From positions 1-48,769 of IMG/VR virus record IMGVR_UViG_3300037484_000573: a stretch of 48,769 bases of DNA. One strand, given 5' to 3'. Every line of letters begins with the position of its first letter. The stretch's first letter is position 1. A model generated the notes under the pieces. That model was not told the origin of the DNA, made no database searches, and saw only the letters and a list, made by a program, of their open reading frames with translations. The translations under genes and the position numbers were made by a program. Positions 890 through 46,258 of this stretch are shown piece after piece. This DNA is from a virus (Duplodnaviria > Caudoviricetes).

Positions 890-3774
890 ACTTTCAATGC
901 CTCCAAATCGAACAGAGTTAATTGCTTACTCTCAGCGAGTGCTTTTTCGGCGTTGGAATTTGAAAGTACAAAATATTCAGGCTTAAGCTCCATTGCCACT
1001 ACCTTGCGCCCTGTTCTAATAGCCCGGTCTAAGCAAGTACCAGAGCCACTAAATGGAGTGAATACCAACTCACCGGGTAGGGTATACATCTCAATCGGGC
1101 GCTGAATAACGACAAGGGGCAAGGGGCAAAGATGCTTATCGGCATCCTCGGTATCATGGAAATTCTTACTCCTGTCCAGGCCCAAAGTCTCTCCCTCTTG
1201 AACATCAAACCAAATACCCAGCGCAGTTTGTACCATGTTAAGCCAGCGTTCTTCACGGGGCATCTTAGCCAACTTGCCAAAGTCACTATCGAAGCCCTTG
1301 TCAGGCCATGCACCTTCAGCGTATAGAATCCACTTGTCACCATACATTTCTGAGTAAATCTCAACTTCTAATCCCTCGCATTTCGGGCATTGGTCAAGTG
1401 ACATAGCGTTAATTTCACCTGATTTATAATTGCGAGTTGTCTTGCTGTCATACCCGATTAAGCTACTGGCGTATCCCTGCCAACCGCATGATTTGCAAGT
1501 TGCCAAATCCGCCACTGCCCTGTCACTTTCGCCAGGCTTTTTGAACAAAAGCATTGTACCATTCATAGCTGGGGCAATACGTAAACGGTCTTTCTCCATA
1601 TTACCCATTGCCAAATTTGAGACATGCTTGACAATACTCTGCATCTGCTGATTTTTGATAATCGGGATTTTGCCAACTAATACCCAGCCCGCTTTGGCTG
1701 CTGCGCGAGTTACTTCGCCAGTAACGTCAAACAAACCGACATTGCCATCTAATCCCTTGCGTAATGGCACATCCTCCAAGTGCATTGCCATAATTCTACC
1801 GGGCTTGGTGACTGTTTTCATCCCCTCAAGAAAGAACTGAAACTGCAACATGAAGTCATCCATGCCCCCTACCGCTCCGGCCCCCCTGGTATTGCCCATA
1901 TCAGCCGGGTCACGGCTATAGGTGAAAACGTCACCTGGGAACGGGGGGCTAAATACTGACAAGTCAACCTTGTCAATTAGGCTATCATACATACCCCAGA
2001 GCGTCTCATAGCTCATATTCTCTTGACGCGCTAACTCCCGTGCCTTAGCTGGCTTATCCGTTGCCAGATAAATCTCCCGTATCATCAGCATTGATTTGAT
2101 ACTATCAGCATGATAAAGCGAGTAGTCACGAGTGATAATAGGTTCATACTTGACTGATTCAAATTCAGACATAGGTGCAAAATCCTCCAATAATAAAAAG
2201 TCTTTTAGTTCGTCTGCCAGAGAGCCGATGTAAAGGCGCTCCTGATAGTCAAAGTCCTGTTGCATGCTCTTTTGTTTCTTGAGCACGTTTTGAATAATCA
2301 CTTCTTCATATGCCGTATAAACGAGGTAAATGAGTACTTGCTCCATTTGACCGTATCTGTGAACACGCTTCACGGCCTGAAAATATTGCTCAAATGAGTC
2401 TTGAAGTCCTGAGAATATTTCGATAAAGCAAAATTGGAAGTTTAGGCCAAAGCCGAGTATACGAGGTTTGCTGATAATTACATCTAGCTCACCATGTCGG
2501 AACTGGTCAATTTGAGACAGGCGCGTTTCAGGCTTAGTTTTGCCGGTAATATGAGCAACCCTATAACCCTCACTGAGGAGTTTACGCTCTAAAATGTCGC
2601 CCTCTTCATCAAATACTGTCCAGACTATAACCTGCTTGCCGGCATGTGAAACAATAATGTCATGGATAGCTTGTGGCTTATTTGAGGTGACATAGCTCGT
2701 TGCCTCATCTCCGTTGTAGACAAACCCCTTGCTAATCTGGCTGAATTTGCTACGCTGACCCATGTCGCTAGGGGGAACTGCTATACCGGGTAAATAAGCC
2801 TGTTTACCCTTTTTGGCCCATTTCTTAATCAGGTCATCTTGCTCAGGCGTCATGTCAACAAGGATGTGTATTTCCTTCCAGGGCTTCAAATCGCGTAGAT
2901 TATTGTCAAACCCATAACTTGCAGGTGAGCGCATGAAGATGCTCCAACTTGCTAGGTACTGATAAAACTTCTCGGTAGCATGCCGGCGCAAAACATACTC
3001 GCCATCTTTGTTGACGAAGTACATTGAATAAAACTCTTTTTCAGAGTTGATGTAGCCCAGCCACCAGCAGATCATGGCATACTCGGTTTTGTCGTTGGGT
3101 GCAGGCGTACCACTTGCAGCAATACGACGTGGCACAAACTTACAGGCGCTAATCAGGTTACGGGCTATCTTGCCATTGCCACCTTGCCCACCCTTAAGTA
3201 TGCTGGCCTCATCAAGTAATACCAGTTCAATGTTGCGAGGTAACTCATCAATCTTGATAAATGCCTCATGGTTGATAAAGGCCACTGATTCATCATCAAG
3301 CAAGGCCCATTCTTTCAAAGTACGCTTGGAGTTATGCAAGTTGACACTGGCCGGAAAGTCATCAAAAAACGTCTGACACATCTCCTGAGATTGGGTGAGG
3401 ATGTTGAGCGCTGTAATATAAAGAATTTTACGCTCTGGATAAGCGGCATGTACCTGCCGAGCTACCTCACCTAATGCGTAAGTTTTGCCCAGGCCAGGGT
3501 CTAAAAAGATGCCATAGCACCCCTTAATAAAACTCACCTTAGCAATTACTTGCTGATAATCAAAAAGCTTTTCGGTAACTGACAAGGGGAGCTTGATACG
3601 CTCCTGATAAAAGCCATCAACGTGATTAGCCGGAAATGTGATGGTATTGTCAATCACCTTGTAAGTAGGCAAACCACGAATAGCGATGTAATCCAGATAA
3701 GAGGCAAGTGAAAAGTCATTAAAGGTTAATTCGGCCTGATTGCCGGTTATGGTTGGAGTGTTAGTTAGTTTCAT
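886..3774 (-). CDS. SNF2-like helicase fused to an N4-C/N6-A DNA methyltransferase
   Basis: Helicase motifs LDPGLGKT, LLDEAS, SGTP, GFGLNFQ, QAVKRVHRYGQ. C-terminal FSPPF precedes FTPFSGSGT (beta-class order), with a CKSC..CPKC insert. Confidence 0.85.
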   Translation of the reverse strand: MKLTNTPTITGNQAELTFNDFSLASYLDYIAIRGLPTYKVIDNTITFPANHVDGFYQERIKLPLSVTEKLFDYQQVIAKVSFIKGCYGIFLDPGLGKTYALGEVARQVHAAYPERKILYITALNILTQSQEMCQTFFDDFPASVNLHNSKRTLKEWALLDDESVAFINHEAFIKIDELPRNIELVLLDEASILKGGQGGNGKIARNLISACKFVPRRIAASGTPAPNDKTEYAMICWWLGYINSEKEFYSMYFVNKDGEYVLRRHATEKFYQYLASWSIFMRSPASYGFDNNLRDLKPWKEIHILVDMTPEQDDLIKKWAKKGKQAYLPGIAVPPSDMGQRSKFSQISKGFVYNGDEATSYVTSNKPQAIHDIIVSHAGKQVIVWTVFDEEGDILERKLLSEGYRVAHITGKTKPETRLSQIDQFRHGELDVIISKPRILGFGLNFQFCFIEIFSGLQDSFEQYFQAVKRVHRYGQMEQVLIYLVYTAYEEVIIQNVLKKQKSMQQDFDYQERLYIGSLADELKDFLLLEDFAPMSEFESVKYEPIITRDYSLYHADSIKSMLMIREIYLATDKPAKARELARQENMSYETLWGMYDSLIDKVDLSVFSPPFPGDVFTYSRDPADMGNTRGAGAVGGMDDFMLQFQFFLEGMKTVTKPGRIMAMHLEDVPLRKGLDGNVGLFDVTGEVTRAAAKAGWVLVGKIPIIKNQQMQSIVKHVSNLAMGNMEKDRLRIAPAMNGTMLLFKKPGESDRAVADLATCKSCGWQGYASSLIGYDSKTTRNYKSGEINAMSLDQCPKCEGLEVEIYSEMYGDKWILYAEGAWPDKGFDSDFGKLAKMPREERWLNMVQTALGIWFDVQEGETLGLDRSKNFHDTEDADKHLCPLPLVVIQRPIEMYTLPGELVFTPFSGSGTCLDRAIRTGRKVVAMELKPEYFVLSNSNAEKALAESKQLTLFDLEALKV

Positions 3775-8082: not shown

Positions 8083-8881
8083 CGCTTTAGCAGTGGTACA
8101 AAATTCACTTATGGAAGAATGGCAACTCGACAAAGAACTAGGCGAGTATGCCGCCCGCTCTGGCATTGGCAATATGTATGAAAGCGCCTTGAAAGCACAT
8201 GTAGCCCGTGAGTTAGGCATTTCCAGCGCCGCCGCTTTGAACGGAGTTTACATTATCGAAGGCAAGCCCAGTATTTCCCCCGCGCTAGCATGGGCCTTAA
8301 TCGTTAGCCATCCTCAATTTGATGGCTACACCGAAAAGCGCATGACTGATGCAACTGGCGCTTTTTATGGTTGGGAAATCACCCTCAAACGCAAAAACGG
8401 AGTACAGGCTACACGGCGCTTTACGATGGAAGATGCCCAGCGCATCACAGTTGGCAAGAGCAATCAGAAGTTAGCCGATAAAGACAATTGGAAGAACTAT
8501 CCCGAAAACGTTTGCTATTGGCGAGCAATGGGCTTTACTCAAGACATTGTTTGGCCCGATGTAACATTAGGTATGAAACGAAGCGATGAATTAGGCGCTG
8601 ATATTTCGCCTGATGGCAACGTTATTCAAGCCCCTGCTAACTATGTCATAGAGATGCCGCAAACCCCGCCAGTGCCCGTGCCAGGGGAAGTTATACCCCA
8701 ATACGGAATTGATACGGCCCGACTAATCGAGCTTGCCTCAACTGAAGAGATTATGGCAGCTAACGGCGGGCAATTCCCCCTTACGCCAGAAGATGTTAAT
8801 CGCACCGTTCATGGGCTGGTTATATCGGGTAAAATCACGCTTGAGGTCCAAAATGAGCAGAGCATCCCTAACCCTGAATAA
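8075..8881 (+). CDS. RecT/Bet-like single-strand annealing protein
   Basis: ARELGI..ALNGVYIIEGKPSI, FTMEDA, NWKNYPENVCYWRA resemble phage RecT-like recombinases. Confidence 0.65.
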   Translation: MNNALAVVQNSLMEEWQLDKELGEYAARSGIGNMYESALKAHVARELGISSAAALNGVYIIEGKPSISPALAWALIVSHPQFDGYTEKRMTDATGAFYGWEITLKRKNGVQATRRFTMEDAQRITVGKSNQKLADKDNWKNYPENVCYWRAMGFTQDIVWPDVTLGMKRSDELGADISPDGNVIQAPANYVIEMPQTPPVPVPGEVIPQYGIDTARLIELASTEEIMAANGGQFPLTPEDVNRTVHGLVISGKITLEVQNEQSIPNPE

Positions 8882-9683
8882 TGGTGATTTAATCCTAACT
8901 AGCCCCTTTGACCGGGGGCTAGTTGAGGATATTAAAGGCATCCCTTACCACGATAGGCAGTACATGCCAGCTACCAAACAATGGAGAATAAAGTACATGT
9001 GGGGTAGTGATGTTGCCGCTATGTGTAAAAAGCACTTAGGGCAAGACGTGATTGTGCCTAGCCAAATAACGCAACGTGATGCCGGCCTGACTATCAAACT
9101 GCTAAAAGTCGAGTACATTGGTAGTGTCAAGGACAGGAGCGATGGCTCACAAACGGCTACGGGCTGGGCAAATGGCGGGTGGAATGTCATCTTCCCCCAT
9201 AACGTACTCAGAGCATGGTTTGCCGATGAAAGTAAACCCGATGAGGCTCCAACGAGATATGCTCAGTTAGGCGTCAAGCCAAAGGCGACGGCAGATGAGA
9301 TTAAAAAAGCGTATCGCCTGGCCGCTAAAACCTGGCATCCTGATCTAAATAAAGACCCTAGCGCAAGTGAGCAATTCAGGCTTATCCAAGAGGCATATGA
9401 GATGCTAGGTAATGAGCAACAACGCCGGAAATATGACGCTGGGCTAATGTTTGAACGGGATTATGAAAAGAGCGCCAAGAAGCGTAAAGAAGTTGTTACG
9501 GAGAAATTTGGATGGCAGCCCCCAATCAGGTGTGGATTTATGGTGTGTGAAGGCGTAGAGAGTTTGGGTCGATTTACCGTTGCCAAAATCCTCTCATGGT
9601 CAACAATTACAAACGAGCGAGGGGAAGAAATGGTAAGCTACTGGCAACGTGGGCAAGATACTTTTAGCGTGGAATGGCTATAA
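8853..9683 (+). CDS. J-domain (DnaJ-like) protein
   Basis: YAQLGV...EIKKAYRLAAKTWHPDLN...FRLIQEAYEML...RRKYD; SD GAGG before ATG 8853. Confidence 0.85.
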   Translation: MSRASLTLNNGDLILTSPFDRGLVEDIKGIPYHDRQYMPATKQWRIKYMWGSDVAAMCKKHLGQDVIVPSQITQRDAGLTIKLLKVEYIGSVKDRSDGSQTATGWANGGWNVIFPHNVLRAWFADESKPDEAPTRYAQLGVKPKATADEIKKAYRLAAKTWHPDLNKDPSASEQFRLIQEAYEMLGNEQQRRKYDAGLMFERDYEKSAKKRKEVVTEKFGWQPPIRCGFMVCEGVESLGRFTVAKILSWSTITNERGEEMVSYWQRGQDTFSVEWL

Positions 9684-9862: not shown

Positions 9863-10092
9863 TAAAAATCTATCTTGACATTAGCCAAACTTACCATAAA
9901 GATATACCAGATGAAAAAACAGCCGATAGATTAGCTCACTTAATCAAGTATATTCTTGAAGATAAAATACCCCTCGATACGGTTGAAAAGGCCGTGCAAT
10001 CGCTTAATTGGAGCGAGGAAACTCAAAAGATTATAACCGATGCGGCTGATCTGGTATGGAATAAAATGCAAGAGGAAATTAAAAATGTCTAA
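9859..10092 (+). CDS. hypothetical protein
   Basis: ATG 9859 coupled to the small ORF; stop overlaps the VWA gene start. Confidence 0.6.
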   Translation: MIKIYLDISQTYHKDIPDEKTADRLAHLIKYILEDKIPLDTVEKAVQSLNWSEETQKIITDAADLVWNKMQEEIKNV

Positions 10093-10645
10093 TCAAATCG
10101 TAACCGGTTCTTTATCGGCTATTTCCCAAAGTACAGGTAAGGCGTTATCCGAATCCTTCATGAGCGCAGACGTGGTTATCGTTCTGGATTGCTCTGGTTC
10201 AATGGAAAGCCACGACGCGCCGGGTAATAAGTCACGTCGAGCTATGGCCCAAGAGCAACTTGTGAAGCTGCAAGCGAATAATCAGGGCAAAATAGCCCTG
10301 GTATGCTTTGCGAATTATGCCGTGTTTTCACCTGCTGGTATTCCGGTTGAGTGCGGGGGAACTACTAATCTAGCCGGCGCACTGTCCTATATTCAACCAT
10401 GTGATGATACGGGCATGAAGATCATCATAGTCAGCGATGGCAGTCCAGATGATGAGCAAAAGGCGCTGGGTATTGCTAAACAGTTTAAGACGCCTATCTC
10501 CTGCGTGTATACCGGGCCGGAAGATGACAGAGAGGGAGGCCGCGCATTTTTAGAGAAGTTGGCAAAAGCAACCGGGGGAACTGCGCTTAAAAGCGACATG
10601 CCGGGGTTACTTGAAAAAGAAGTGACGCTGCTACTTGAGGGTTGA
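10085..10645 (+). CDS. VWA-domain protein
   Basis: MIDAS motif VLDCSGSM, GGTTNL, IVSDGSP, LAKATGG. Confidence 0.85.
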   Translation: MSNQIVTGSLSAISQSTGKALSESFMSADVVIVLDCSGSMESHDAPGNKSRRAMAQEQLVKLQANNQGKIALVCFANYAVFSPAGIPVECGGTTNLAGALSYIQPCDDTGMKIIIVSDGSPDDEQKALGIAKQFKTPISCVYTGPEDDREGGRAFLEKLAKATGGTALKSDMPGLLEKEVTLLLEG

Positions 10646-10839: not shown

Positions 10840-12264
10840 ATGGCAACTTCGCAACAGCAAACGCAACCCCCTAATACCCCCAAAACAAAAAATCCCAAAC
10901 TAACCCATACCGAGCTAGGCCGGTTATATTTAGCCCGACATAGAAAATATACCCTTTTTGCCAGGGGGTACTGGCATCGCTATTCAGGGGGGGTTTGGAC
11001 GCCAGTACCAGATTTTGAGATTGAAATGGAAGTATGGAATTTGATGGAGAGTTTTGAATCCGCACCTCACTTTTATCATCCTACCGATGGCATTAAAAAA
11101 AGCGTACTCAGCTATGTGCGGAGTAGCGTTAGCATATCAGAGGAAAAGTTAGATGCCTATCCCAACTTGATAAATCTCAAGAACGGCATTTATAACCTCG
11201 ATACTGATAGCCTTATTGACCATGACCCTATATACCTGTTGACCTCACAACTCCCCTTTGAATATGCCCCAGCTGCTACTTGTACATTTTGGGACTTATT
11301 TATTCAAACCACCTTCACCGATATAACGGGCAAGATAACCGATCAGGAGCTAATTTACTTTATTCAGGAGATAACCGGTTATTCCCTGACTACTGACATA
11401 AGTTATCAGGTTATGTTTTGGTGTATAGGCGAGGGCGAAAACGGCAAAGGGGTTTTATTCCACGTCTTAAACAAACTAGGCGGGGCAAGCGCAGCGCACG
11501 TTGATCTTAATATATTAAAGAAAGAGAAATATCAACTCGCCACCCTGCTAGGTAAAAGAATTGTTATGTGTAGTGAAGCGAATACCCATGATAACTTAGT
11601 TGAAGATGGCATTATCAAGGCGTATGTAGCTGGAGACCCTATTCCAGTTAGACAGATACGCCGGGAACCTTTTACCCTTTACCCCACTGGTAAGTTATGG
11701 TGGTCTATGAATCGCCTTCCCACCATAACGGATACAAGTCATGGCTTTTGGCGTCGCATGCGCCCTATCCCGTTTAATAACACGTTTGAAGATGGCAACC
11801 GTATTGTTGACTTGAAGGACAAGCTCGACTGTGAGCTATCCGGCATTTTTAATTGGTGCTTAATCGGGTTACGCCGGTTAAAAGCTAATCAGCGCTTTAG
11901 TCACTGTAGTCAGGTAGAGTTAATGAAGTTACAGCTACAAACCGAAAGTAATACTATTCGGCTATTTATCGAAGATGAAGCAGAAGTAACATGGATGAAT
12001 GCAATCGAGAAAAAGATAGACCCTAAAACAGTAGACGGATTAGAAGAATCATCAGCAGAAGTATATGACAGATATAAACAATGGGCTATCTTAAACGGTT
12101 ACAAACCCCTCTCTAATCGCAGTTTCAAGACTGAAATGGAATCCCTCAAATTTTACTATGGTAAAGATAAAAATAGGACAATGCGAGTTATAAAACGAAT
12201 TAAATTATCCAAAAGTAAAACATCAAAGTTTGCCCCTAGCAGTCCAACGCAATCCAGCTTCTAA
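10840..12264 (+). CDS. D5/P4-family SF3 replicative helicase
   Basis: INLKNGIYNL (D5_N), Walker A GEGENGKG, VMCSE, NRLP, GFWRR..IPF, C-terminal winged helix. Confidence 0.9.
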   Translation: MATSQQQTQPPNTPKTKNPKLTHTELGRLYLARHRKYTLFARGYWHRYSGGVWTPVPDFEIEMEVWNLMESFESAPHFYHPTDGIKKSVLSYVRSSVSISEEKLDAYPNLINLKNGIYNLDTDSLIDHDPIYLLTSQLPFEYAPAATCTFWDLFIQTTFTDITGKITDQELIYFIQEITGYSLTTDISYQVMFWCIGEGENGKGVLFHVLNKLGGASAAHVDLNILKKEKYQLATLLGKRIVMCSEANTHDNLVEDGIIKAYVAGDPIPVRQIRREPFTLYPTGKLWWSMNRLPTITDTSHGFWRRMRPIPFNNTFEDGNRIVDLKDKLDCELSGIFNWCLIGLRRLKANQRFSHCSQVELMKLQLQTESNTIRLFIEDEAEVTWMNAIEKKIDPKTVDGLEESSAEVYDRYKQWAILNGYKPLSNRSFKTEMESLKFYYGKDKNRTMRVIKRIKLSKSKTSKFAPSSPTQSSF

Positions 12265-12590
12265 GGACAGCAGGGACGCATGGGACAGATAAAAATGTCG
12301 CAATATACTATATATAAAAAATGGCTATTTTCACTGAAACTGTTAAGTAAAATAGCGTTACTCTTAGAATGTTTCTAGTATAGTGTCCCATGTGTCCCAT
12401 GTGTCCCCATTTATATATTTATATGACTAAACTTATAAAATCATATCTCTCAAAATGTGTCCTTTTAGGGACAGCAGGGACAGATAACATGCAATTTTCG
12501 TATAACGGTAAAATGCCTTGAATAGTGAAAATAGGCACAATCAAAAAGCTATCTGTCCCATGTGTCCCTAAAATATACAAAATGCGTCCT
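12264..12590. repeat. putative replication origin: convergent GGGACA/TGTCCC iterons
   Basis: GGGAC(A) at 12273, 12282, 12468, 12477; TGTCCC at 12384, 12393, 12402, 12554, 12563; 9-bp period with AT-rich spacers; immediately after the helicase. Confidence 0.7.
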
Positions 12591-12605
12591 GTTTTGAGGT
12601 GAAAA

Positions 12606-12953
12606 ATGGATAACCACACCCCCGAATACCTGGCATATCTCAACTCATTTACCTGGCATCTTAAGCGCTGGTTAAGGTTGAATTACGCCGGCCATAAGTG
12701 CGAGAATTGCGGCAGTCGTGAGAAGCTCCAGTGTCACCACAGGACATACGAGCGCCTATTCCACGAACGCATATCCGATCTACAAATCTTGTGCGAGGAT
12801 TGTCATCTCCTGGCAGATGCCCAGCGTCGGTATGACAAGGCGGTTAATACGTTCGCCACTAAAAAGTGGGGGGCAGCGTGGGTACAGGTGATGAGGCCAG
12901 ATGAGGCAAAGGCGGAGTTTGATAGATGGCTAGAATCAAAGCAAAGTAGGTAA
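12606..12953 (+). CDS. HNH endonuclease
   Basis: KCENCG...LQCHHRTY...LQILCEDCH. Confidence 0.85.
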   Translation: MDNHTPEYLAYLNSFTWHLKRWLRLNYAGHKCENCGSREKLQCHHRTYERLFHERISDLQILCEDCHLLADAQRRYDKAVNTFATKKWGAAWVQVMRPDEAKAEFDRWLESKQSR

Positions 12954-13024
12954 TAAAACAAACCCCTGCGTTACCTTGCCACTTGTAGTGCGTCTGATGA
13001 CAATCTACGCATTACCCCCAAAGC

Positions 13025-13067
13025 AAAAAATAGAGCCTACTCGTTATTGAGTAGGCTCTATTGATTT
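13025..13067 (-). terminator. intrinsic terminator, possibly bidirectional
   Basis: AATAGAGCCTACTC/GAGTAGGCTCTATT stem with a T-run on the minus strand. Confidence 0.75.
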
Positions 13068-13255
13068 AATGCTGGCGGACAGACCGAAGGTATTTTTTAT
13101 GGTGATTAACAGGGTTTATCCGGTTGGCTAATCCGGTATAGCCATATTGTGATTTATTGCCCTCCCTTGCCTATTCCACTGAGGGTATTAAGGTCACAAG
13201 GTACAAACGGGCGGCGATTACATTTGCGCTTGATCTGCGCGGGGCCGGCGAAATA

Positions 13256-13309
13256 CTAAAAGTTAATATGTTTCACAGCGGCAATTGCCGGGGCTGCACG
13301 GGCTTTCAT
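13256..13309 (-). CDS. putative 17-aa peptide
   Basis: SD AGGAGG 5 nt before ATG; MKARAAPAIAAVKHINF*. Confidence 0.4.
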   Translation of the reverse strand: MKARAAPAIAAVKHINF

Positions 13310-13500
13310 TTGGGCCTCCTGTGGAGATAATGATAAACGTTATCGGGTAAACCGTCCCGATTGCGGTTTGTCACCTATAGCGGGCTGGGCTACGGTTGAC
13401 GATTGATTTTAGACAATAACACGCACGTATAAAGAAATCCTCACTCTAAGTTTTGCCACAGTTTATCAGCCTGTCACCTCGCTTTCTGTGTTTCCAACAA

Positions 13501-13570
13501 TTGCGGATCACAGATTTGAACTGTGTCGAGAGGCTTATGAGACCCCCCAGTCTACCAAGACTTATCCGCA
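13501..13570 (-). tRNA. tRNA with CAT anticodon (Met/fMet; Ile2 not excluded)
   Basis: Acceptor TGCGGAT/ATCCGCA, D arm GTCT-TGGT-AGAC, anticodon GGGGT-CTCATAA-GCCTC, T arm CACAG-TTCAAAT-CTGTG; no encoded CCA. Confidence 0.8.
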
Positions 13571-13654
13571 GTATTAGCCCTTACTCCCCGTTGCCACTGT
13601 TCTGCGAAATGAGCCAAGACAGTAAGGGAGCGCACACACTAAGGGCTATTGATA

Positions 13655-13777
13655 AACAGCGGGCCGGATTCGATTCCGGCTTAATCCTTTTGGCGATTTA
13701 GGGTTTACGTGTTCCCTCGCCTTCGTTTAGGTAGCACACGTTCCGATACCTACACTTCCAAACAGTGCTGCCGCTGT
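13655..13777 (-). ncRNA. tRNA-like structured RNA without a canonical anticodon arm
   Basis: ACAGCGG/CCGCTGT closing stem, D-like arm, T-like arm GCCGG-AATCGAAT-CCGGC, and two inner arms with complementary loops. Confidence 0.55.
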
Positions 13778-14324
13778 CTATTCCGTTTTAGTGGGCCGGT
13801 TACACGTACCGGAGTCAGCCTTTCCTCATTTGGACGTGTTATTACCTTTGGCTCGACCGGCCCTATGTCATCCGCTTGCGCGGTTGTGACCTCAATAAAA
13901 GAGTTGCTCCCTGCCCCGCGCCTCACTTTACTGAGCGCAATGCTCTGTAAATCTATTGCACCATCCGGCCTTGTCCCAAATTGGGAAGGGCACTTTATTT
14001 AATGGCCGTCAACTCTTTATGTTGTTAATTTTGCCAGCGTATGCCGCTTAAGCGTACACTTACCCCTCACTGGCTATCTACAGGATGTTGGCATCAACGG
14101 CGCAATCTATTAAGCCAGGGCAATGACCCCCACTATGCTCCTGTAGATAAAACGTTGCGCCGATTACCCCCGGCGTTGGGGTTTGCCTCACTAAACCGTT
14201 TAGCTCATATAGAGCCTTGCATCTGCCCGTGCGTGATTAGCACGTAGCAAGTTATCACGGTAAAGAAGGCGGCTCAATCGGTTGTCAAGCCGGTAAATCT
14301 ATGACTACTTTTGAGCCTAATGCC

Positions 14325-14353
14325 ACTATAACCGATATTTGGGAATTTGTCTA
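14325..14353 (-). promoter_or_regulatory. promoter for the non-coding RNA cluster
   Basis: TAGACA-17-TATAGT pointing into the tRNA region. Confidence 0.6.
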
Positions 14354-14415
14354 CCCCTTTTTCACAGGAAAGTGTTACACAATCATTAAAATCTACAAAA
14401 TAAGTAAAATAATTA

Positions 14416-14444
14416 TTGACAGTAAAATCCAGATGTGGTATAGT
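14416..14444 (+). promoter_or_regulatory. sigma70-type promoter
   Basis: TTGACA-17-TATAGT with TG extension. Confidence 0.75.
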
Positions 14445-14472
14445 GGATACATCCTAAGTTTAGAGGTAAACA

Positions 14473-19484: not shown

Positions 19485-19961
19485 ATGTCAAATCTAATTG
19501 AAGCAAAAGTAGGCTCTGAGCAACATTCAAGCGCGTGGGGTAAGGGCAACTTGCAGGGTACTCCAAAACTGGTAGCTGAGAATTATCAACGTGACCGACA
19601 TAATAGCTACACCGAAGGCGCAGTAGAAATCAGTGAAGGCACTATCATTTCCTGGTGGACTAGCGCCGGGGATAAATACGGCATGCACACGGCTGATTTT
19701 TACATTCTCAAAAGCGTAGCCAGCGCTGAAATGCTAGAGTTGGCCGGTGGATGCTACGGACGTGGCAATTATCTCAAGGGCAATTTTGAGATTTTAGCTC
19801 ACGCTGAAGGCAAAACAAAAGCCCCCCGCCTTATGAAGTGGTGGAGTGAATGGGCTAAATCAAACGGCGGTCAAACTGAGGCAATGGCTCAACATCTGGC
19901 AGCGCAAATTGAGAAACGTGGTAAATCAGAGCCGGATAAAATGGAGATACAAATTGCTTAA
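19485..19961 (+). CDS. hypothetical protein
   Basis: SD AAAGGA before ATG 19485, downstream of the promoter. Confidence 0.7.
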   Translation: MSNLIEAKVGSEQHSSAWGKGNLQGTPKLVAENYQRDRHNSYTEGAVEISEGTIISWWTSAGDKYGMHTADFYILKSVASAEMLELAGGCYGRGNYLKGNFEILAHAEGKTKAPRLMKWWSEWAKSNGGQTEAMAQHLAAQIEKRGKSEPDKMEIQIA

Positions 19962-20181
19962 TTTTGGTCAATTCATCAAATCAAAAAGGGAGAGCTTGAG
20001 GCTCTCCCAGCAATCCCTAACTGATGCCTGCGGGTTTGTTCACCGTGCCGAAATCAGCCGCTTAGAAGCTGGTAAACTCGAATGGAAGCTGTCTCAGGTT
20101 ATCGCCATAGCCGCATTATTTGGGATGCCAGCCAGTGAGTTATTGAGGGAGTTTGAAGGAACGAATAACGGTTCGCGTTAA
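19954..20181 (+). CDS. XRE-family HTH regulator
   Basis: FGQFIKSKRESLRLSQQSL...EISRLEAGK; TTG start with GGAG SD. Confidence 0.75.
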   Translation: MLNFGQFIKSKRESLRLSQQSLTDACGFVHRAEISRLEAGKLEWKLSQVIAIAALFGMPASELLREFEGTNNGSR

Positions 20182-20283
20182 AAGTGGACAGCCAAACAAA
20201 GTACCTTTGCCGGAAAAGTAAAGTACCTTTGGCCCTTATATTACCCCTCGCAATCGGTTATACTGGCATTATCAAAGTTAAAC

Positions 20284-20583
20284 ATTAACAACTGAGACAT
20301 TCACCGGAAGATAGTTAGAGCCAGTCCAAAGTAGTCTCATTAGACGAAATGGGCGATACTAGCACCGAAGTAGTAAGCGCTGGACAAAAGAAACCCTTAA
20401 CCGCCTAGACAGTGCCACTCCAAGTAGACCTCTCTAAAGAAGTCATAAAACCAACCGAGTGAGCAACGCAGGTAACAAGAGCATAAGGGGAACAGGGGGA
20501 GCGAGTAGTCAAACCAAACAGCGGGCGATGAAATCGGTTAGCAACAAATTGGTAAGCAGCCGGTGAATGTCTTAGAAGTTAAT
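20284..20583 (+). ncRNA. putative large structured RNA (~300 nt)
   Basis: Closed by ATTAAC..CTGAGACATTCACCGG / CCGGTGAATGTCTTAG..GTTAAT; no ORF in the track; inner stems present. Confidence 0.6.
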
Positions 20584-20620
20584 CCCCCGCCCAGAGGCTT
20601 ATCTGGGCAACAGGAGTAAT

Positions 20621-20869
20621 GTGATGTCAGTCAGAAGTCAACATAACCGAACTGAAAATACCGGTACTCGCGTAGGTGATAAGTATTTTATTATCCAGCG
20701 CGGATCAAGCCGGGCAACAGGTAGTAATTCAACCTTGTCATCAATGCGGCAAGCGGCCAAACGGTTTATAGAGACGCCGCAATTTACTGCTGATTGCCTG
20801 TACTATGATGGGTTTATGGTTAATGGAAAATGGCAATTTAGGGCAGTAGGATTAGGGCAAAAGTTCTAA
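20621..20869 (+). CDS. hypothetical protein
   Basis: SD CAGGAG. Confidence 0.6.
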   Translation: MMSVRSQHNRTENTGTRVGDKYFIIQRGSSRATGSNSTLSSMRQAAKRFIETPQFTADCLYYDGFMVNGKWQFRAVGLGQKF

Positions 20870-21111
20870 TGCCTAACCTCACCTGCCCCCTGTGCCACGC
20901 CCCAGTAGGGCAGCACGTAATCTTTGCCGGGGTTCTATCGCACGTAACCCCTTATGGTCAAACTGAAATGGCCCTAGAGGTAGGTGTAGCCCGTCAACAA
21001 TTTATTGACAAACCATCTACTGAAACATTGCAACGCTGGCAAGATACAATGGAGATGCGGGCCGAATACCGCAAGGCGCTAAAGTGGCAAACGAGGGGCA
21101 ATAATTGGTAA
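20869..21111 (+). CDS. hypothetical protein with CxxC
   Basis: CPLCH; coupled start. Confidence 0.55.
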   Translation: MPNLTCPLCHAPVGQHVIFAGVLSHVTPYGQTEMALEVGVARQQFIDKPSTETLQRWQDTMEMRAEYRKALKWQTRGNNW

Positions 21112-21228
21112 GGTACTTGCCCAAGAGGGCATCAAATTGGCCTAAAACTCTGCCCACATGGCACTATAAACCCGTCTCGTTATGGCTTATAATAGAGCCA
21201 TAGTCAAATATACAGGAGCAACCGACCA

Positions 21229-21399
21229 ATGAAACAGCGGAAATTTAGAACTACTCCAACTAATCAAAAAGACCAAATTAAATTTATGAGATTAACCAGT
21301 GACCAAAAAGAACTTGTACTTGATGAAGTTGAACGGCTTTATGATGGTACTCGGACTATGGCTCAATGCTGGAAATTAGCTCTCTTAGGGGCTGAATAA
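21229..21399 (+). CDS. small hypothetical protein (56 aa)
   Basis: Manual translation; SD CAGGAG; TATAAT upstream; TAATG overlap with the next gene. Confidence 0.55.
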   Translation: MKQRKFRTTPTNQKDQIKFMRLTSDQKELVLDEVERLYDGTRTMAQCWKLALLGAE

Positions 21400-21593
21400 T
21401 GCACACTCCCATAATTGCCTCAATTCTCTCCCAACTCGGTTTTGTCACCCGTATCACTTCAAGCGGCGTCATTGTCTCGCTTAGCCGGCCAGTGTCAACG
21501 CTTGAAGTTGAGTACGCCTTAACTCAGGAGTTTGAGGGGATTCAGTTTCAGGTGAGCCGGATTGGTCAAAATTCAATTTTAGTTCAGGAATAG
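21399..21593 (+). CDS. hypothetical protein
   Basis: Coupled small ORF. Confidence 0.55.
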   Translation: MHTPIIASILSQLGFVTRITSSGVIVSLSRPVSTLEVEYALTQEFEGIQFQVSRIGQNSILVQE

Positions 21594-21603
21594 GAACATC
21601 ACA

Positions 21604-21819
21604 ATGAAACACAATGTATCAATTGCAATGACTGAAAAGTATGTCCACATAACCCACTTTGCCCCCTCTGGCAGGCCGGGCTACACAAAAAGCTATCGCA
21701 ATGACAAGATAAGCCAGTACAGCCGTAATCGGGTTTATGCGATAGCTCACAGCAAGGCGACCCGTGCAACTATTAACAAAAGCGGTATTACTCAGTATTT
21801 TATTGAACAAGCTAACTAA
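21604..21819 (+). CDS. hypothetical protein
   Basis: SD AGGA. Confidence 0.55.
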   Translation: MKHNVSIAMTEKYVHITHFAPSGRPGYTKSYRNDKISQYSRNRVYAIAHSKATRATINKSGITQYFIEQAN

Positions 21820-21953
21820 CTGCACCTAGTAGAAACCACGAAAGGATTACCAATGTCACAAGAAAAACAGTTACCCGTTGAAAAAATAGTTGTCAGTCGT
21901 GAAACCGTTGAGCGTGTAGCCAAAGGGTTGTCAGACAACGCAAAGGGGAAGAA

Positions 21954-22151
21954 ATGAGCATAACCGAACAAATAGCCGAACTCAAGTCAATTCGCCGTGA
22001 TCTTAAAGGCGAATTGCGCTATGAGAAAGATGAAGAAGCAAAAGTGGTTCTATCTCAGCAACTTGAAGGCATCGAAGCGGCCATTAAAACTCTTGAGTAT
22101 GTCAAGGCTCAACTTGTGGCTAATGCCTATCTAATCGGGATTGGAGCATAA
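21954..22151 (+). CDS. hypothetical coiled-coil protein
   Basis: Small ORF in a tightly packed run. Confidence 0.55.
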   Translation: MSITEQIAELKSIRRDLKGELRYEKDEEAKVVLSQQLEGIEAAIKTLEYVKAQLVANAYLIGIGA

Positions 22152-22154
22152 ATA

Positions 22155-22391
22155 ATGCAACCCGCCCTATTTTGCCCATCTCATTATACTGGACATTTCG
22201 CAACCGTTCACTTTGTCAGCCCTGAATGGGGTTGGCAATGCACTTTTTGGGAGATGGGCAAACCAGCCGGTCACAAGTGGTTTACGGGCATAATAGAGGC
22301 GCTGTTGGAGTGCTTCAACCTGGGGTTAAGGTTGGCTAGTCCAGCAATGCAACGGGCGTTTACGGAAGATGTTATATTATCAGGAGAATAA
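22155..22391 (+). CDS. hypothetical protein
   Basis: SD GGAG. Confidence 0.5.
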   Translation: MQPALFCPSHYTGHFATVHFVSPEWGWQCTFWEMGKPAGHKWFTGIIEALLECFNLGLRLASPAMQRAFTEDVILSGE

Positions 22392-22394
22392 ACA

Positions 22395-22622
22395 ATGTCA
22401 CTACCAACGCAACACGGCGAAAATATAGCTAATGATATTCAGACAGAAGATGCCTATGGAGATTTTAATGTATTGACTACTGCCGATGTTTGGCTAATCC
22501 TGGACAATCTTCATACGCATTTTATGGATAATGGGAGTGAGAGTCATTCAAATTTGATGGATATGCTGTCAAGTTGGATGCAAGAATTAGAGCAATTCGA
22601 CAACGAATTACCACCGTTTTAA
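22395..22622 (+). CDS. hypothetical acidic protein
   Basis: SD CAGGAG; acidic, ends DNELPPF. Confidence 0.55.
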   Translation: MSLPTQHGENIANDIQTEDAYGDFNVLTTADVWLILDNLHTHFMDNGSESHSNLMDMLSSWMQELEQFDNELPPF

Positions 22623-22644
22623 TGGGCCGCAGTGAAGGGGTAAA

Positions 22645-23151
22645 ATGAAATTCCAAGATATTCCACAAATGACACAGGCACGTTATAGGGTTGACCTAAC
22701 CTGGAAATATTTACAAGATTCTCTAAAACGTTACGATAAAGATTATGGCCTTGACCTCGACCCTGACTTTCAACGCGCCCACGTTTGGACTGAGGCGCAA
22801 CAGATAGCCTATGTTGAGTATCAATTACGTGGTGGTATATCTGGCAAAGATATATTTTTCAATTGCCCCGGCTTTCAAGGCAATCGTAACAAAGTCGGCC
22901 CAATGGTTTTAGTTGACGGTAAACAGCGCCTTAATGCAATTGCCCTATTTCTACAAAATGAGATTCCAGCCTTTGGTTGCTACCTGAAAGACTATGAAGA
23001 TAGGTTGTACTCGCTCTTGAGTTTGAGTGTTCACATTAACAACCTTGACAGTTATCAGGCAGTTTTACAATGGTATCTGGACTTAAACAGTGGCATTGCT
23101 CACACTCAAGAGGAATTAGATAAAGTACGCAAAATGATGATAGAGGAATAA
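22645..23151 (+). CDS. stand-alone DUF262 (ParB/Srx-fold, GmrSD N-terminal-like) protein
   Basis: PDFQRAHVW and LVDGKQRLNAI motifs; ..LDLNSG. Confidence 0.8.
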   Translation: MKFQDIPQMTQARYRVDLTWKYLQDSLKRYDKDYGLDLDPDFQRAHVWTEAQQIAYVEYQLRGGISGKDIFFNCPGFQGNRNKVGPMVLVDGKQRLNAIALFLQNEIPAFGCYLKDYEDRLYSLLSLSVHINNLDSYQAVLQWYLDLNSGIAHTQEELDKVRKMMIEE

Positions 23152-36274: not shown

Positions 36275-37389
36275 TATACCCCCGCTGCTATTGGGTCAAG
36301 TTGCAAAATCTCAGCTAGTTCGGGTTGCCCACCTTGATATGCTTCTGGACTAATCTCGGTTTTTAGTGGCGCTTGTACATGCCCATTTGGAGCGCCTACT
36401 CCAATCTTGAAATCAAGCCCACGCCCAGCTTGCCGGAATTGGCTAATATCATTGACATGGACTTCCAACTTATGGCCCGGCCCGTTGACATTGTAGCTGA
36501 TATTGGTAAACCTACCCACTACACCAAAACCCGCTTCACGCTGCCCACTGTACTCAACCCATACCTTTTCATTATTGGCATATTGGTCAAGTGTACTAGG
36601 GCTTGATTCATACCGTTGTGTAAATGTTTCAGGGGGAACATAAGTAGAACCCCCACCGCCACAGCATCCCACTGGAAGCCTCCCTTCATAAGCACTTTTG
36701 TGCTTATTATAAATAAGTTGTTTCATTTCAGGTTCACGCCGATTTACTTCGCGTAATTGGAGTGAACGGTTATTCTCATGCCGCCGATAGTGCAAAACTA
36801 CCTCATTAAGTTTCTGTCCACAGAAGCCAGCTAACCCACAACTAATCCAGTATTCAACATCCTCTAACCCCGCTTCTAAATCTACTTTCCAACCCCCCGC
36901 CCGTACATGCGCTTCAATCGAGTGCATTGAGGTGACTGTCATAATCCCTTCGGGGTCAAGGGACTTTTTGAAGTCGTACTCAGGCAGGCTCAACTCTTTA
37001 CCTAATTGCCATTCGCCATTTTGTTTAGTTAGTCGCCGCAAGTTACCATAAATCACTTTTGTTTTATCCCTGCGCCAGGTAGTAAACATAGTACCTAATG
37101 TTGACATATCGGCTAACATGTCATCAGCATCAAGGGGCAACAGGCAATCATAACGAGCTAAAGCAACTGCTGTATTGCGACAGGTACTTGGGCCGGACTT
37201 GTGAGTTGTGCGAAATTGTCGGATTTTATCAGAAGGATTAGCAAGGGTGATACCCATAGGTGAGGCGTCGTCAATTAACAGAAGTTCCCAATCTTCAAAT
37301 AGTTGGGATTGCACTGAGGCAATGGCTTCATTAAGCCATTCAAGTTTCTCGATAGTATCTATATAGGCCGGGGTTATGATTGAAATCAT
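36274..37389 (-). CDS. GT2 glycosyltransferase with C-terminal extension
   Basis: ISIITPAY, LLIDDAS, GPSTCRN, PLDADD, LEDVEYW, YRRH; then GCCGGGG and ~125 aa extra. Confidence 0.9.
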   Translation of the reverse strand: MISIITPAYIDTIEKLEWLNEAIASVQSQLFEDWELLLIDDASPMGITLANPSDKIRQFRTTHKSGPSTCRNTAVALARYDCLLPLDADDMLADMSTLGTMFTTWRRDKTKVIYGNLRRLTKQNGEWQLGKELSLPEYDFKKSLDPEGIMTVTSMHSIEAHVRAGGWKVDLEAGLEDVEYWISCGLAGFCGQKLNEVVLHYRRHENNRSLQLREVNRREPEMKQLIYNKHKSAYEGRLPVGCCGGGGSTYVPPETFTQRYESSPSTLDQYANNEKVWVEYSGQREAGFGVVGRFTNISYNVNGPGHKLEVHVNDISQFRQAGRGLDFKIGVGAPNGHVQAPLKTEISPEAYQGGQPELAEILQLDPIAAGV

Positions 37390-37404
37390 TTAATTTCCTC
37401 TGAT

Positions 37405-37641
37405 AAACAAAAAGGCATATCTAAACTAGATATGCCTGCTAAGGTAAAAACCGCTAAAGGCTTTTATAGGCACCTTATCTACCCGTTATTCCATCGCGCT
37501 CGGAGCTGCTGGCTCACAGGAAGCGACGGGAGGAGGTTGCCAAGCCCCCTTTATTTTATAATATTTGATTAAACTTATCCCGCACATGTCATTCATTGTA
37601 CGATAAATGAGTGTATCGGGCATCTAATCAAATAGTTATAA
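37405..37641 (-). ncRNA. structured intergenic region ending in a terminator-like hairpin
   Basis: Hairpin 37556-37641, nested stems 37455-37553, stem 37413-37437 plus T-run. Confidence 0.4.
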
Positions 37642-38577
37642 TCATTTATTTTGATACCAGCTTATGGTTTGCCTTAAGCCATCTTTCAAACTTACTTCTG
37701 GTAGCCAACCCAACTCTTTCGCTGTCCAGATACGTAAACCGCGCCGGGGTTGCCCATCCGGTTTGTCGCTGTTGTACTTGATTTTACCTTTATAGCCGGT
37801 TAGCTCTTTGAGATGCTCAACAATAATTGCTATTCTAACCTCATTACCGCTGCCCAAATTAACCGGTTCTGGTCTGTCGTATTTCTCAGCTAAGAGCATT
37901 ATACCACGAATTGCATCAGAAATAAATAGGAAGTCTCTTGATGCGTTGCCAGTTCCCCAAATCTCAACCGTATCAAGGTTATCTCGTCTGGCGTCAATGA
38001 ACTTTTTAATCAATGCCGGGATAACGTGCGATTGTAGGGGGTTAAAATTATCCCCTGGCCCGTAGAGGTTAGTTGGCAACAGGTAGATGCCATTTAAGCC
38101 GAAATCTTTACGGGCAAGTTGCAGGTGCAGCAGGGCCATACGTTTTGCTAGGCCGTAAGGTGCGTTTGTTTCCTCTGGAAAACCGTCCCAGATAGTACGC
38201 TCATCAAATGGAACTGTGGTGTATTTGGGATAAGCGCAAACCGTACCAATCTGGACAAACTTCCCCACGTTACCATTTTTGGCATGGTGGATAAGGTTGG
38301 TACAAATTTGCAGGTTGTCATAGTAGAGATCATAGCCGTGCTGCTGATTGTAGCCAATGCCACCGACGTTGGCCGCGAGGTTAAATAACACGTCAATTTT
38401 GCCAACATCTCTAAACATTGCCGCTGTGTCATCGTAGCGCCGGAAGTCGTAAACAAGTGAGCTTGGGTTAATCGGGATGCAACCGAGTTCATTAAGCTTA
38501 GCTGTAAGGTGAGTGCCGAGAAATCCAGATCCGCCGGTTATCAAGATAGTTTTATCTTGCCAGAAGTTAATACTCAT
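37642..38577 (-). CDS. fcl: GDP-L-fucose synthase
   Basis: TGGSGFLG, LAANVGGI, CAYP, YGLAK, NLYGPGDNF, SHVIPALI, WGTGNASRDFL, KPDGQPRR. Confidence 0.9.
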   Translation of the reverse strand: MSINFWQDKTILITGGSGFLGTHLTAKLNELGCIPINPSSLVYDFRRYDDTAAMFRDVGKIDVLFNLAANVGGIGYNQQHGYDLYYDNLQICTNLIHHAKNGNVGKFVQIGTVCAYPKYTTVPFDERTIWDGFPEETNAPYGLAKRMALLHLQLARKDFGLNGIYLLPTNLYGPGDNFNPLQSHVIPALIKKFIDARRDNLDTVEIWGTGNASRDFLFISDAIRGIMLLAEKYDRPEPVNLGSGNEVRIAIIVEHLKELTGYKGKIKYNSDKPDGQPRRGLRIWTAKELGWLPEVSLKDGLRQTISWYQNK

Positions 38578-38845
38578 AAGCCTCTTTTATTTTAATACCC
38601 AGTGACAAAATGTTATCTGGCCCTTTTGGAAATGGCATCCAATGGGTGACTCCGTAAACAGCATGTCCATAAATATCAAACCATAGTCCTCTTGTTCCAT
38701 CGTATATTTTGTTGCTATACCACCCAAAATACCCCCCGCTATCACTATCTGGCATTTGTTTTTCTACCCAAAATAAAACAGGTATATTATCAAATTCCGG
38801 TAGTTCATCTTCTATTGAAATCCATTCATTGTCTACCATCGCCAA
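38567..38845 (-). CDS. DUF551-family protein
   Basis: WISIEDELP...VTHWMPFPKGP. Confidence 0.75.
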   Translation of the reverse strand: MAMVDNEWISIEDELPEFDNIPVLFWVEKQMPDSDSGGYFGWYSNKIYDGTRGLWFDIYGHAVYGVTHWMPFPKGPDNILSLGIKIKEAYEY

Positions 38846-40593
38846 TTGTCCTCTGCTTTCTGTGGCTCAATCATCGCCAATAACTCGCTCGCTCGTGCCT
38901 CAAATGAGTGCTCCCTCAAAGCTAATCGCTCACCAGCAAGGGCTATAGCCGCCCGTTCTTTTTCGTGGTTTAGGTAGTATTTAATCTTCTTTTCCAACTC
39001 GCTAAAATCTTTCCAGATAATACACGTCTCACCGTCAACTAGTCCTAGCTTGTCCATGTCCCTAAACCACTGATGAGCCATAGCGCATCCACCGGCGGCT
39101 AGAATTTGGAATACCCGATTAGAGACAAATCCTGTATCGGGCCACTGGCTATCGCCTATTCCAATTTTGGCGGCACGATAGATTTTGCAACCCTCGGAAA
39201 AGTTATACATAGTTTGGCCTTGACTCCACTCAGCAGGCCAGCCGTTACCGTATAGGCCAAAAGAGAGGTTAAGACTTTTGAGCTTTTTAACCAACACTTG
39301 ACGCGCCGGTGAATAACCGCTTGCCAAAAAGACAACATCAAAAGGCATGCCACCCTCATAACCAACCCCATCAGGCTCATAACCAATTTGCCAGTAACCA
39401 GCATTAACGTCCATTGCCTTTTGCTTTTCAATAGCATCTCGGTTTACCCCCAATTGTAGATCAAAAGCCTTTGCCAATTTAATGCCATCTTCGCTCAACA
39501 AATTCTCAGGCCAAAAGTCACCATTCCAATTGATAAAGCGGGTTTTAGGATTATCCTGCTTAAGCCGGGCAATATCAGCCGCATTAATTTGCTCACCATT
39601 ATGGAGTTGGCTTAAGAAGATAGTAGGCTGAATTTTAGCCATCAATTCTTCTATCTCACCAAGCATACCAATTTCACCTAATTTTGCATATTGCTCTAAA
39701 TAATCATACTCAACCGTTAGCGCAACTTTAGCTAATGCCTCTCTTAACCCCCGCTTTTGTTCCTTTTGAATAGCCCATCCTTGCTCATAAATGGGTAGAT
39801 ACAAGACGCGCTCTTTAGCCACAATGGGATTGGTCAACATTGGGTAAGGCCGGATAATTGGCCCGACAGGTGAGCCGGGTAAGTCGAAGTGCTTCCACTT
39901 GCGCCCCCAAGTCCAGCTATCAGGGTGATGCCCCCCTACGGCACGAGGGTCTTTGCCCCCGGTTATATTGTTGACCTTGCGTAAGTCATCCTGTACTTCA
40001 TGGTCACTAATCTTTGCCCCCGGTATAGGTGATACTTGAAAGCCTAGCTCATACATCTGGGCCGATAACTCATTGTCACCCCCATAAGTATGCCCACCCC
40101 AGTCGCCCCACCAGCCCACTTTGTCACCTAGCCACTTGGGAACAATGCACACTTGACCGTAAGGCCGGTGTACTTGCTTGCCTTCATAAACACAAGGCAT
40201 CTGCTCTACATGCCAATCCTGCCCATTGCGGTTTTGATAAAAGCACCCCACGCCACAATCAGGGTTTGATTGCATATAGGTATAAGCGAGTAGGATGCTA
40301 TCGGTTACAAATTCAATATCATCATTAGCCAAAATGATGTAATCGGCTTGTGCTGCGTAACTTGCATCATTGAAAGCGCGAATAGCCCCAAGTAATTGAC
40401 CGTGCTGGATTAAATTTATATCAGGTTGACTCAAGCACCATTCAATAGTGCCATCCTGACTCCCGCCGTCTGTAAGCCAAAAGGCTAAACTAAGCCCAAA
40501 AATACCCTCAACCGAGGCACGGGCCGATTCTATCATACGCTGTAGGCTGTCTATGCGGTTGTAAGTGCCAGATACTACCGAGATGTCAGTCAC
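38833..40593 (-). CDS. two-domain glycosyltransferase (GT2 plus CgeB-like GT-B)
   Basis: N-half SVVSGTYNR, DGGSQDGT, ANDDI, YGGDNEL; C-half DVVFLAS, YGNGW, SNRVFQILAAGG, IKYYL..ER..IA..G...HSF..R. Confidence 0.85.
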   Translation of the reverse strand: MTDISVVSGTYNRIDSLQRMIESARASVEGIFGLSLAFWLTDGGSQDGTIEWCLSQPDINLIQHGQLLGAIRAFNDASYAAQADYIILANDDIEFVTDSILLAYTYMQSNPDCGVGCFYQNRNGQDWHVEQMPCVYEGKQVHRPYGQVCIVPKWLGDKVGWWGDWGGHTYGGDNELSAQMYELGFQVSPIPGAKISDHEVQDDLRKVNNITGGKDPRAVGGHHPDSWTWGRKWKHFDLPGSPVGPIIRPYPMLTNPIVAKERVLYLPIYEQGWAIQKEQKRGLREALAKVALTVEYDYLEQYAKLGEIGMLGEIEELMAKIQPTIFLSQLHNGEQINAADIARLKQDNPKTRFINWNGDFWPENLLSEDGIKLAKAFDLQLGVNRDAIEKQKAMDVNAGYWQIGYEPDGVGYEGGMPFDVVFLASGYSPARQVLVKKLKSLNLSFGLYGNGWPAEWSQGQTMYNFSEGCKIYRAAKIGIGDSQWPDTGFVSNRVFQILAAGGCAMAHQWFRDMDKLGLVDGETCIIWKDFSELEKKIKYYLNHEKERAAIALAGERLALREHSFEARASELLAMIEPQKAEDNWRW

Positions 40594-46257: not shown

Positions 46258-46258
46258 T

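Follow-up and report, generated by a model that had tools for sequence, protein, structure and literature searches.

Large structured RNAs of phages are few in the accounts available, in which ROOL and GOLLD stand without a known function. ROOL averages 581 nt and GOLLD exceeds 800 nt, both are often found near tRNAs (PMC5737381, PMC12286853), and both form RNA-only cages (PMC12286853); the raiA motif RNA, another structured orphan of medium to large size, is 205 nt long (PMC12286853). The largest viral survey (PMC10690425) required three copies in IMG/VR, and the RNAs that it reports are no longer than 151 nt. In T4-type phages, genes of unknown function are gained and lost by recombination at repeated early promoters as PeSL cassettes, which consist of a promoter and a terminator stem-loop (PMC2839356).

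The segment described here, from an environmental phage, resembles ROOL and GOLLD in being a large, multi-stem, phage-encoded orphan RNA, but at 300 nt it is half their size or less, is built of repeated sarcin-ricin-type modules, has no match in Rfam and would head an early-type transcript. Its nearest tRNA, the tRNA-Met at 13501-13570 on the minus strand and the only one found by ARAGORN in the window (the whole virus record, 48,769 bases), lies 6.7 kb away and on the other strand. Candidate contacts for pseudoknots of the ROOL/GOLLD type are present, none with visible covariation. With the raiA motif RNA it shares the standing of a medium-large structured orphan, and differs in having no Rfam match and in being phage-borne, patchy and mobile. 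The filled and empty versions of its promoter recall the module shuffling of PeSL cassettes, except that the cargo is a 300-nt RNA and there is no terminator; the promoter recurs in several contigs of one environmental sequencing run (X4), but only once in the window record. A conserved non-coding unit with compensatory changes was found, of the kind of the large structured phage non-coding RNAs, and we conclude that among structured phage RNAs it represents a new family, neither ROOL nor GOLLD.

No Rfam family matched at gathering threshold in the window, in agreement with the earlier sequence-only reading, which could not place the RNA as tmRNA, RNase P, SRP or an intron; with Rfam 15 at E<=10, positions 20100-20800 gave only one chance match, to a eukaryotic lncRNA (E 4.7). 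The families thus left without a match include ROOL, GOLLD, raiA, OLE, tmRNA, RNase P, SRP, 6S, T-box and the ribozymes. A tmRNA (none by ARAGORN), a T-box (UGGU is present, with no synthetase gene) and a CRISPR-repeat mimic were rejected for want of an Rfam match, and a retron or DRT RNA because no reverse transcriptase is found among the 64 ORFs and the neighbours are small unknown ORFs. Searches with blastn against phages and plasmids gave no real homologue. Pattern scans of IMG/VR (2, 6, 4, 4 and 34 matches) returned nothing alignable to the RNA beyond the pattern itself, and the 10 of the 34 matches examined in full all lay inside long ORFs; a scan of GTDB gave no matches, and one of JGI metagenomes gave 69 without a real homologue. 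With blastn and nhmmer, too, none was found over 69 loci. Of the 69 metagenome matches, 13 are unrelated and 56 (L014:3001-3019 and 55 others like it) come from a single group II intron family, whose domain I (group-II-D1D4-7) shares a 19-nt stretch of the 3' junction of the RNA. We regard the 19-mer as a coincidence because there is no similarity outside it (40-54% of shuffles score equally), and an intron relic was rejected for its different pairing partner and for the absence of a domain V match and of a reverse transcriptase gene.

Among 34 whole related records blastn gave eight weak chance matches, six of which were inspected, and a single-sequence covariance model of 20358-20545, run over 35 records and 39 sources, found the window only. 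The 35 related phage records, reached through the helix-turn-helix (HTH) and minor tail genes, hold no detected copy, so the RNA appears to be rare even in its own phage group, exact patterns and a single-sequence model being apt to miss distant relatives and thus not proof of absence. The window itself has a single copy. No description of the RNA was found in the literature as represented by listings and the starts of abstracts, and five of its short motifs are absent from the searchable part of the supplement to the largest survey (PMC10690425).

The segment, its promoter and its neighbours

The record is linear, has an estimated completeness of 66%, and belongs to a tailed phage, as indicated by tape-measure and minor tail genes, a D5-type primase and a helicase-methylase among the 64 ORFs scanned. 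The host might be a member of the Chloroflexota. The RNA segment is placed between the gene for an XRE-type HTH protein, ending at 20181, and a run of small ORFs without known family (20621-23151) that is convergent with the tail genes. Its features are listed below; here and throughout, coordinates of three digits are the last three digits of 20xxx positions.

19960..20181, + strand: XRE-type HTH gene (Pfam HTH_3, E 2.7e-7), upstream of the promoter
20198..20231, + strand: pair of direct repeats of 12 bp, 22 bp apart; both are gapped palindromes, AAAG-TAC-CTTT
20259..20264, + strand: -10-like hexamer TATACT, with a poor -35 region and a start predicted near 20271
20284..20583, + strand: structured RNA cassette, 300 nt, its ends set by the contig of run X3
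20284..20307, + strand: 5' strand of the closing helix, in which an AA/AA loop separates 6 bp from 16 bp
20308..20323, + strand: 5' junction strand, conserved, kept in a divergent X5 piece (20285-20323)
20324..20354, + strand: predicted arm 1 (helix 324-328/350-354, AGUA/GAA module, hairpin 334-337/342-345)
20364..20538, + strand: predicted arm 2, a long irregular helix (outer helix 364-368/534-538, then an AGUA/GAA module)
20539..20559, + strand: 3' junction strand, the most conserved, with one common change, T20549A
20560..20583, + strand: 3' strand of the closing helix; beyond 20564 this arm is different in X11
20589..20616, + strand: 7-bp hairpin without a U tract (shared by X9 only), then AGGAG; outside the cassette proper
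20621..21111, + strand: two small ORFs, 82 and 80 aa, 3' of the RNA in the window

The sequence-only reading had drawn the segment as 20284..20608. The unit is real but ends at 20583, the hairpin that reaches 20608 being common only to X9, and pieces from X2, X4 and X5 end at 20282-85 or 20582-83. The closing stem that it had described is present in full, with 16 bp joining 20292-20307 to 20560-20575 (pair probability 1.0, -26.8 kcal/mol) and the extension ATTAAC/GTTAAT at 20284-89/20578-83; the single G-U pair, G20294-U20573, favours the + strand, which is also backed by G-U-type variation inside the segment (G334-C345 to G-U, G373-U529 to G-C and U381-A520 to G-U). The stretch is likewise free of ORFs, with none of at least 40 aa inside and stops in all six frames. 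Two small + strand ORFs, at 20349 and 20528, are interrupted in variant copies, and a peptide-coding leader was rejected because the 19-codon ORF acquires a stop there and the ATG at 20528 is lost. Folding z-scores against shuffles were -3.77 on the + strand and -2.26 on the - strand; with the closing stem taken away, the interior is no more stable than shuffled sequence (z +0.63), so thermodynamics alone supports the closing helix only. Long-range stems are not unique to this segment, and a 20-bp stem is found in the window at 12272/12569. The stretch that holds it (12264-12600), directly after the D5-type primase, is ORF-poor, has GGGACA/TGTCCC units repeated in both orientations and an AT-rich core beside this 20-bp inverted repeat, and is likely to be a replication origin.

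Downstream, the hairpin (20589-20608) and the Shine-Dalgarno-like AGGAG (20612-16) that had been noted are both present; the AGGAG falls outside the closed fold, and no intrinsic terminator was found near or after the RNA in the window. Neither the 82-aa nor the 80-aa ORF belongs to a PHROG, Pfam or NCBIfam family, small distant relatives being found for the former, which is the first after the RNA; no family was found for the upstream 194-aa ORF. The next -10-like site comes only two short ORFs downstream of the RNA. No transposase or reverse transcriptase is encoded among the 64 ORFs of this 66% complete record.

The TATACT that had been taken as a -10 element just upstream stands at 20259-64, and is not called as a promoter by a consensus scan. 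The promoter piece 20163-20275 is shared with X2, and 20215/20222-20265 with X4. Of the two repeats upstream (20198-20209 and 20220-20231), the nearer is found again, along with the -10 region, in X2 and in several contigs of X4, and its recurrence in X4 suggests a family of regulated phage promoters. The gapped palindromes are likely to be boxes at which a protein binds the promoter; inverted repeats are bound by HTH dimers (PMC13551039), and the neighbouring HTH protein (P0001 is its 75-aa form, starting a few codons earlier), for which six relatives at 71-88% were found, is perhaps the regulator of these boxes.

Elsewhere in the record, a large cluster (36277-47556) of glycosyltransferases, NDP-sugar epimerases, an RmlD-like gene and three methyltransferases may serve DNA or virion glycosylation, and the replication module includes DnaJ-domain and von Willebrand A-domain genes (8733-9680 and 10040-10642). 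A queuine tRNA-ribosyltransferase-like gene adjoins the helicase-DNA methylase fusion (74-3774), where its function may presumably be deazaguanine DNA modification.

Copies in other environmental DNA

Words from 20150-20750 recur in thirteen DNA runs, which come from 10 studies, and in no RNA run among the matches listed. Eight of the runs were examined (X6-X8, X12 and X13 enter no count). In X1 the stretch 20205-20355 is unchanged, and this run was excluded from the counts because it is a possible source of the record. Pieces of the RNA are present in all seven remaining runs, which come from seven studies and are labelled as drinking water, soil (three), landfill and freshwater, with one unlabelled. 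A contig of 462 nt in X3 carries exactly 20284-20583, without gaps and with 13 differences (287 of 300 letters, 96%), while neither of its flanks is related to the window; conservation of the interior in X3 is about 97%.

The 5' flank is visible in three runs, and in all of them a -10-like site lies about 20-25 nt upstream: TACAAT in X3, TATAAT in X5, and in X4 a sequence that aligns with the promoter region of the window with few changes. The 3' flanks are six different sequences (X2, X3, X4, X5, X9 and X11). In four of the six (X2, X3, X4 and X9) AGGAG follows close behind the RNA and then gives way to differing sequence; it is absent from the 30 letters given for X5 and X11, and no target duplication is common to the six.

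The same promoter also occurs without the RNA. In X2 record 4, the last part of the HTH gene together with the promoter (20163-20275, two differences) is followed directly by AGGAG and ATG; in two X4 contigs the promoter is joined to a leader which in another X4 contig comes after the RNA; and in the syntenic phage L086 the HTH gene, a promoter and the first gene are found without it. The segment is thus a swappable cassette, a discrete and conserved non-coding unit directly behind a phage promoter, and it is likely to move between promoters by recombination at short shared leader sequences. The heptamer AAGTTAA is found twice, in the leader (20275-81) and at the 3' end of the RNA (20576-82), and recombination between these copies would produce the empty allele.

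Predicted fold and paired changes

The minimum free energy (MFE) model was computed prior to examination of the variants, and predicts an RNA with two arms, its ends held together by a long terminal helix. Arm 1 ends in a 4-bp hairpin (334-337/342-345) with a CAUU loop. Arm 2 continues from its outer helix through 373-374/528-529, 378-382/519-523 and a predicted 383-385/508-510 with an AGUA/AAA module, and has an inner domain with helices 416-420/457-461 and 427-429/442-444.

Two-sided changes that keep predicted pairs are found in arm 2, as G379-C522 to A-U in X4 and as U374-A528 to C-G, C380-G521 to U-A and U381-A520 to G-U in X11; in both runs the two sides are on separate short contigs (depth 2-15, X11 2), so that their linkage is assumed. 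One-sided changes that retain pairing are G373-U529 to G-C in arm 2 and G334-C345 to G-U in arm 1, the latter in X3 and X4. A change of U335-A344 to C-G is seen on a single molecule, in the loose end of one X5 contig, which does not have helix 324-328/350-354 in register. The four two-sided changes compare with a null mean of 0.32 (P about 0.00015), and five broken predicted pairs with 13.4 expected (P 0.00005), the null being the same substitutions placed at random in 20,000 draws. Input to the test was X3, X4 records 9 and 10, and X11 records 2 and 4; the same changes are repeated in X4 records 9 and 11 and in the pieces from X5, X9 and X10, which were therefore not included. Variants came from pieces pooled per run and not from an alignment of full-length homologues, and the variant tables seem, from the counts, to omit changes within about 30 letters of piece ends, so that variation in the closing helix and in the partners of 395-397 goes unseen. 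Two of the five broken MFE pairs are U398-A485 (X3 and X4), one is the weak pair 544-549, and two have unseen partners; T398C fits an alternative helix, 394-398/495-499, that costs 2.4 kcal/mol.

These compensatory changes, from few variants and with linkage assumed within runs, support the long inner arm 2 that was missing from the sequence-only reading. Its four inner complementary pairs all exist as letters, but three are contradicted or weakened as pairs. GTCCA/TGGAC has a probability of 0.0; GTCCA pairs with TGGGC at 20350-54 (0.97), and 20381-82 are part of a covarying helix. TAACCG/CGGTTA likewise scores 0.0, and in X3, X4, X5 and X10 its end pair is lost through T20398C. CCCTTA/TAAGGG is weakened, with a probability of 0.6 and its fifth pair broken by the same T20398C, and CACTC/GAGTG holds up at 0.96, with no variation there.

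The motif RAGUAG occurs four times (at 329, 368, 422 and 503), against 0.18 expected per 300 nt. In three of the four cases an internal loop between helices sets AGUA opposite GAA or AAA (330/346, 369/530 and 504/386, the last depending on the predicted 3-bp helix); the fourth faces AUA and is atypical. Both AGUA-GAA and AGUA-AAA are among the listed sequences of the sarcin-ricin motif (PMC1865062), and the three modules fit this motif at the level of sequence, although the phage RNA differs from the sarcin-ricin/loop E case in that there is no GAGA-capped ribosomal loop and in that variants change two of the modules: the one at 369 is AUAA in X11, accompanied by the matching change A533U, and the partner strand in arm 1 is CAA in X5. 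The change C482T (X4, X5, X9 and X10) creates a fifth AGUA.

The two junction strands, 308-323 and 539-559, are retained in the divergent copies of X2 and X5 beside arm sequence that is unalignable, which suggests a conserved core with variable arms. Local matches to these two copies start at 20539, and the 3' strand is also kept in X4, X9 and X11. UUAGAG at 20315-20 is complementary to the loop CUCUAA at 20432-37, a contact that is predicted only. The CAUU loop (20338-20341), which is kept in X5, could pair with AAUG at 20548-20551 in the copies with T20549A (X2, X4, X5, X9 and X11), a 4-nt contact that is within chance.

Possible roles of the RNA

The sequence-only reading proposed an undescribed large phage non-coding RNA or else an antitermination or processing leader. 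The first is sustained by the absence of an Rfam family, the discrete conserved unit and the compensatory changes, and the second remains as its rival. The segment is likely to be a folded RNA gene that acts early in infection, and we lean, tentatively, towards a trans-acting RNA that is probably cut out at its terminal helix and binds a host protein. It would be transcribed from the TATACT promoter together with the next small genes, and would close on itself, so that the ribosome-binding site behind it stays accessible. The 22-bp end helix may be cut by RNase III or another double-strand RNase, with release or protection of the RNA there; a compact tertiary fold could then present the repeated AGUA (sarcin-ricin-type) loops to a host protein early in infection, with the RNA serving as decoy or scaffold in the manner of the small early host-takeover proteins that may be encoded nearby. 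Release by an RNase and protein binding by the AGUA loops are suggested by the anatomy of the RNA and by general knowledge. We favour a trans-acting gene because the segment is conserved while its neighbours change, because the promoter exists without it, and because its self-closing fold spares the ribosome-binding site and small early-type cargo genes lie around it. Against this, every visible 5' flank is a promoter and there is no terminator, which a cis-acting leader fits equally. The lack of a folding signal in the interior, the assumed linkage of the paired changes, the variation within the AGUA modules and the rarity of the RNA in its own phage group also count against it.

If the RNA is a trans-acting early product, the cargo of host takeover extends from small proteins to large RNAs. 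A bolder version, which we consider improbable, is an RNA-only host-takeover or anti-defence gene that is traded between early promoters like a protein gene, its sarcin-ricin modules acting as decoys for host translation factors or for defence toxins that target rRNA. The natural filled and empty versions of the promoter offer a ready comparison of cis and trans action, and an RNA of 300 nt is easily synthesised for probing or cryo-EM.

The main rival, somewhat unlikely in our judgement, is a portable cis-acting 5' leader that folds during transcription and raises expression of the genes that follow, whether through antitermination, protection of the 5' end, or recruitment of a protein by the AGUA loops. 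Antitermination RNAs include put and EAR, and the first route would be like theirs. Such a leader is consistent with the position of the segment, which comes straight after a -10-like site both in the window and in each of the three runs with a visible 5' flank, with the AGGAG close behind it in four of six 3' flanks and with the lack of an intrinsic terminator after it; it accords less well with a promoter that drives genes without the RNA in X2 and X4, with downstream genes that are unrelated among the copies, and with the two short ORFs that are all that precede the next -10-like site in the window. Three hundred conserved nucleotides would also far exceed the need of a stabilising hairpin.

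We think it quite unlikely that the RNA is catalytic or binds other RNA, as a ribozyme, as an oligomer like ROOL or GOLLD, or as a binder of tRNA 3' ends through the conserved UGGU at 20550-53. That the junction strands by the closing helix are the most conserved while the arms vary would suit such a function, as would unpaired stretches with loop-loop complements (20315-20/20432-37, for example), and the cages formed by ROOL and GOLLD are a precedent (PMC12286853); there is, however, no match to a ribozyme family and no covariation for any tertiary pair, and a complement of 4 nt is within chance.

It is improbable that the segment is a selfish, non-autonomous element, MITE-like or mobilised as RNA, which targets promoter leaders and whose fold spares the gene downstream. 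Its sharp ends at an inverted repeat, the filled and empty versions of one promoter, the 7-bp AAGTTAA at both ends in the window and a leader-like repeat around the X4 copy all point that way. The deep interior covariation points instead to a selected RNA fold, and no transposase or reverse transcriptase was found among the 64 ORFs (of a record 66% complete); a MITE or IS-derived repeat as such was rejected on the one copy in the record, the differing 3' end in X11 and 3' flanks without a shared target duplication.

That only the closing stem is meaningful, as RNA or as a DNA hairpin, around a neutral interior is very improbable and already largely refuted, in spite of the interior z of +0.63 and the further long stems in the window, by the conservation of the interior in X3 between unalignable flanks, by the four two-sided changes that keep interior pairs, and by two changes that involve G-U pairs acceptable only to RNA of the + strand.

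Across 965,997 bases of related loci and the window there are 11 ORF-poor long-range stems, and only that of the RNA itself encloses more than two RAGTA. In the window, about 1.5 kb with few convincing ORFs (12951-14470) contains a 15-bp hairpin at 13029-13062, the minus-strand tRNA-Met and further hairpins, and possibly represents more non-coding RNA or divergent promoters. Three stretches in related phages (L098:3204-3410, L100:12878-13084 and L120:11946-12258) are 207-313 nt long and ORF-poor, with 13-bp closing stems; they are unlike the RNA described here, and are possibly other structured RNAs.
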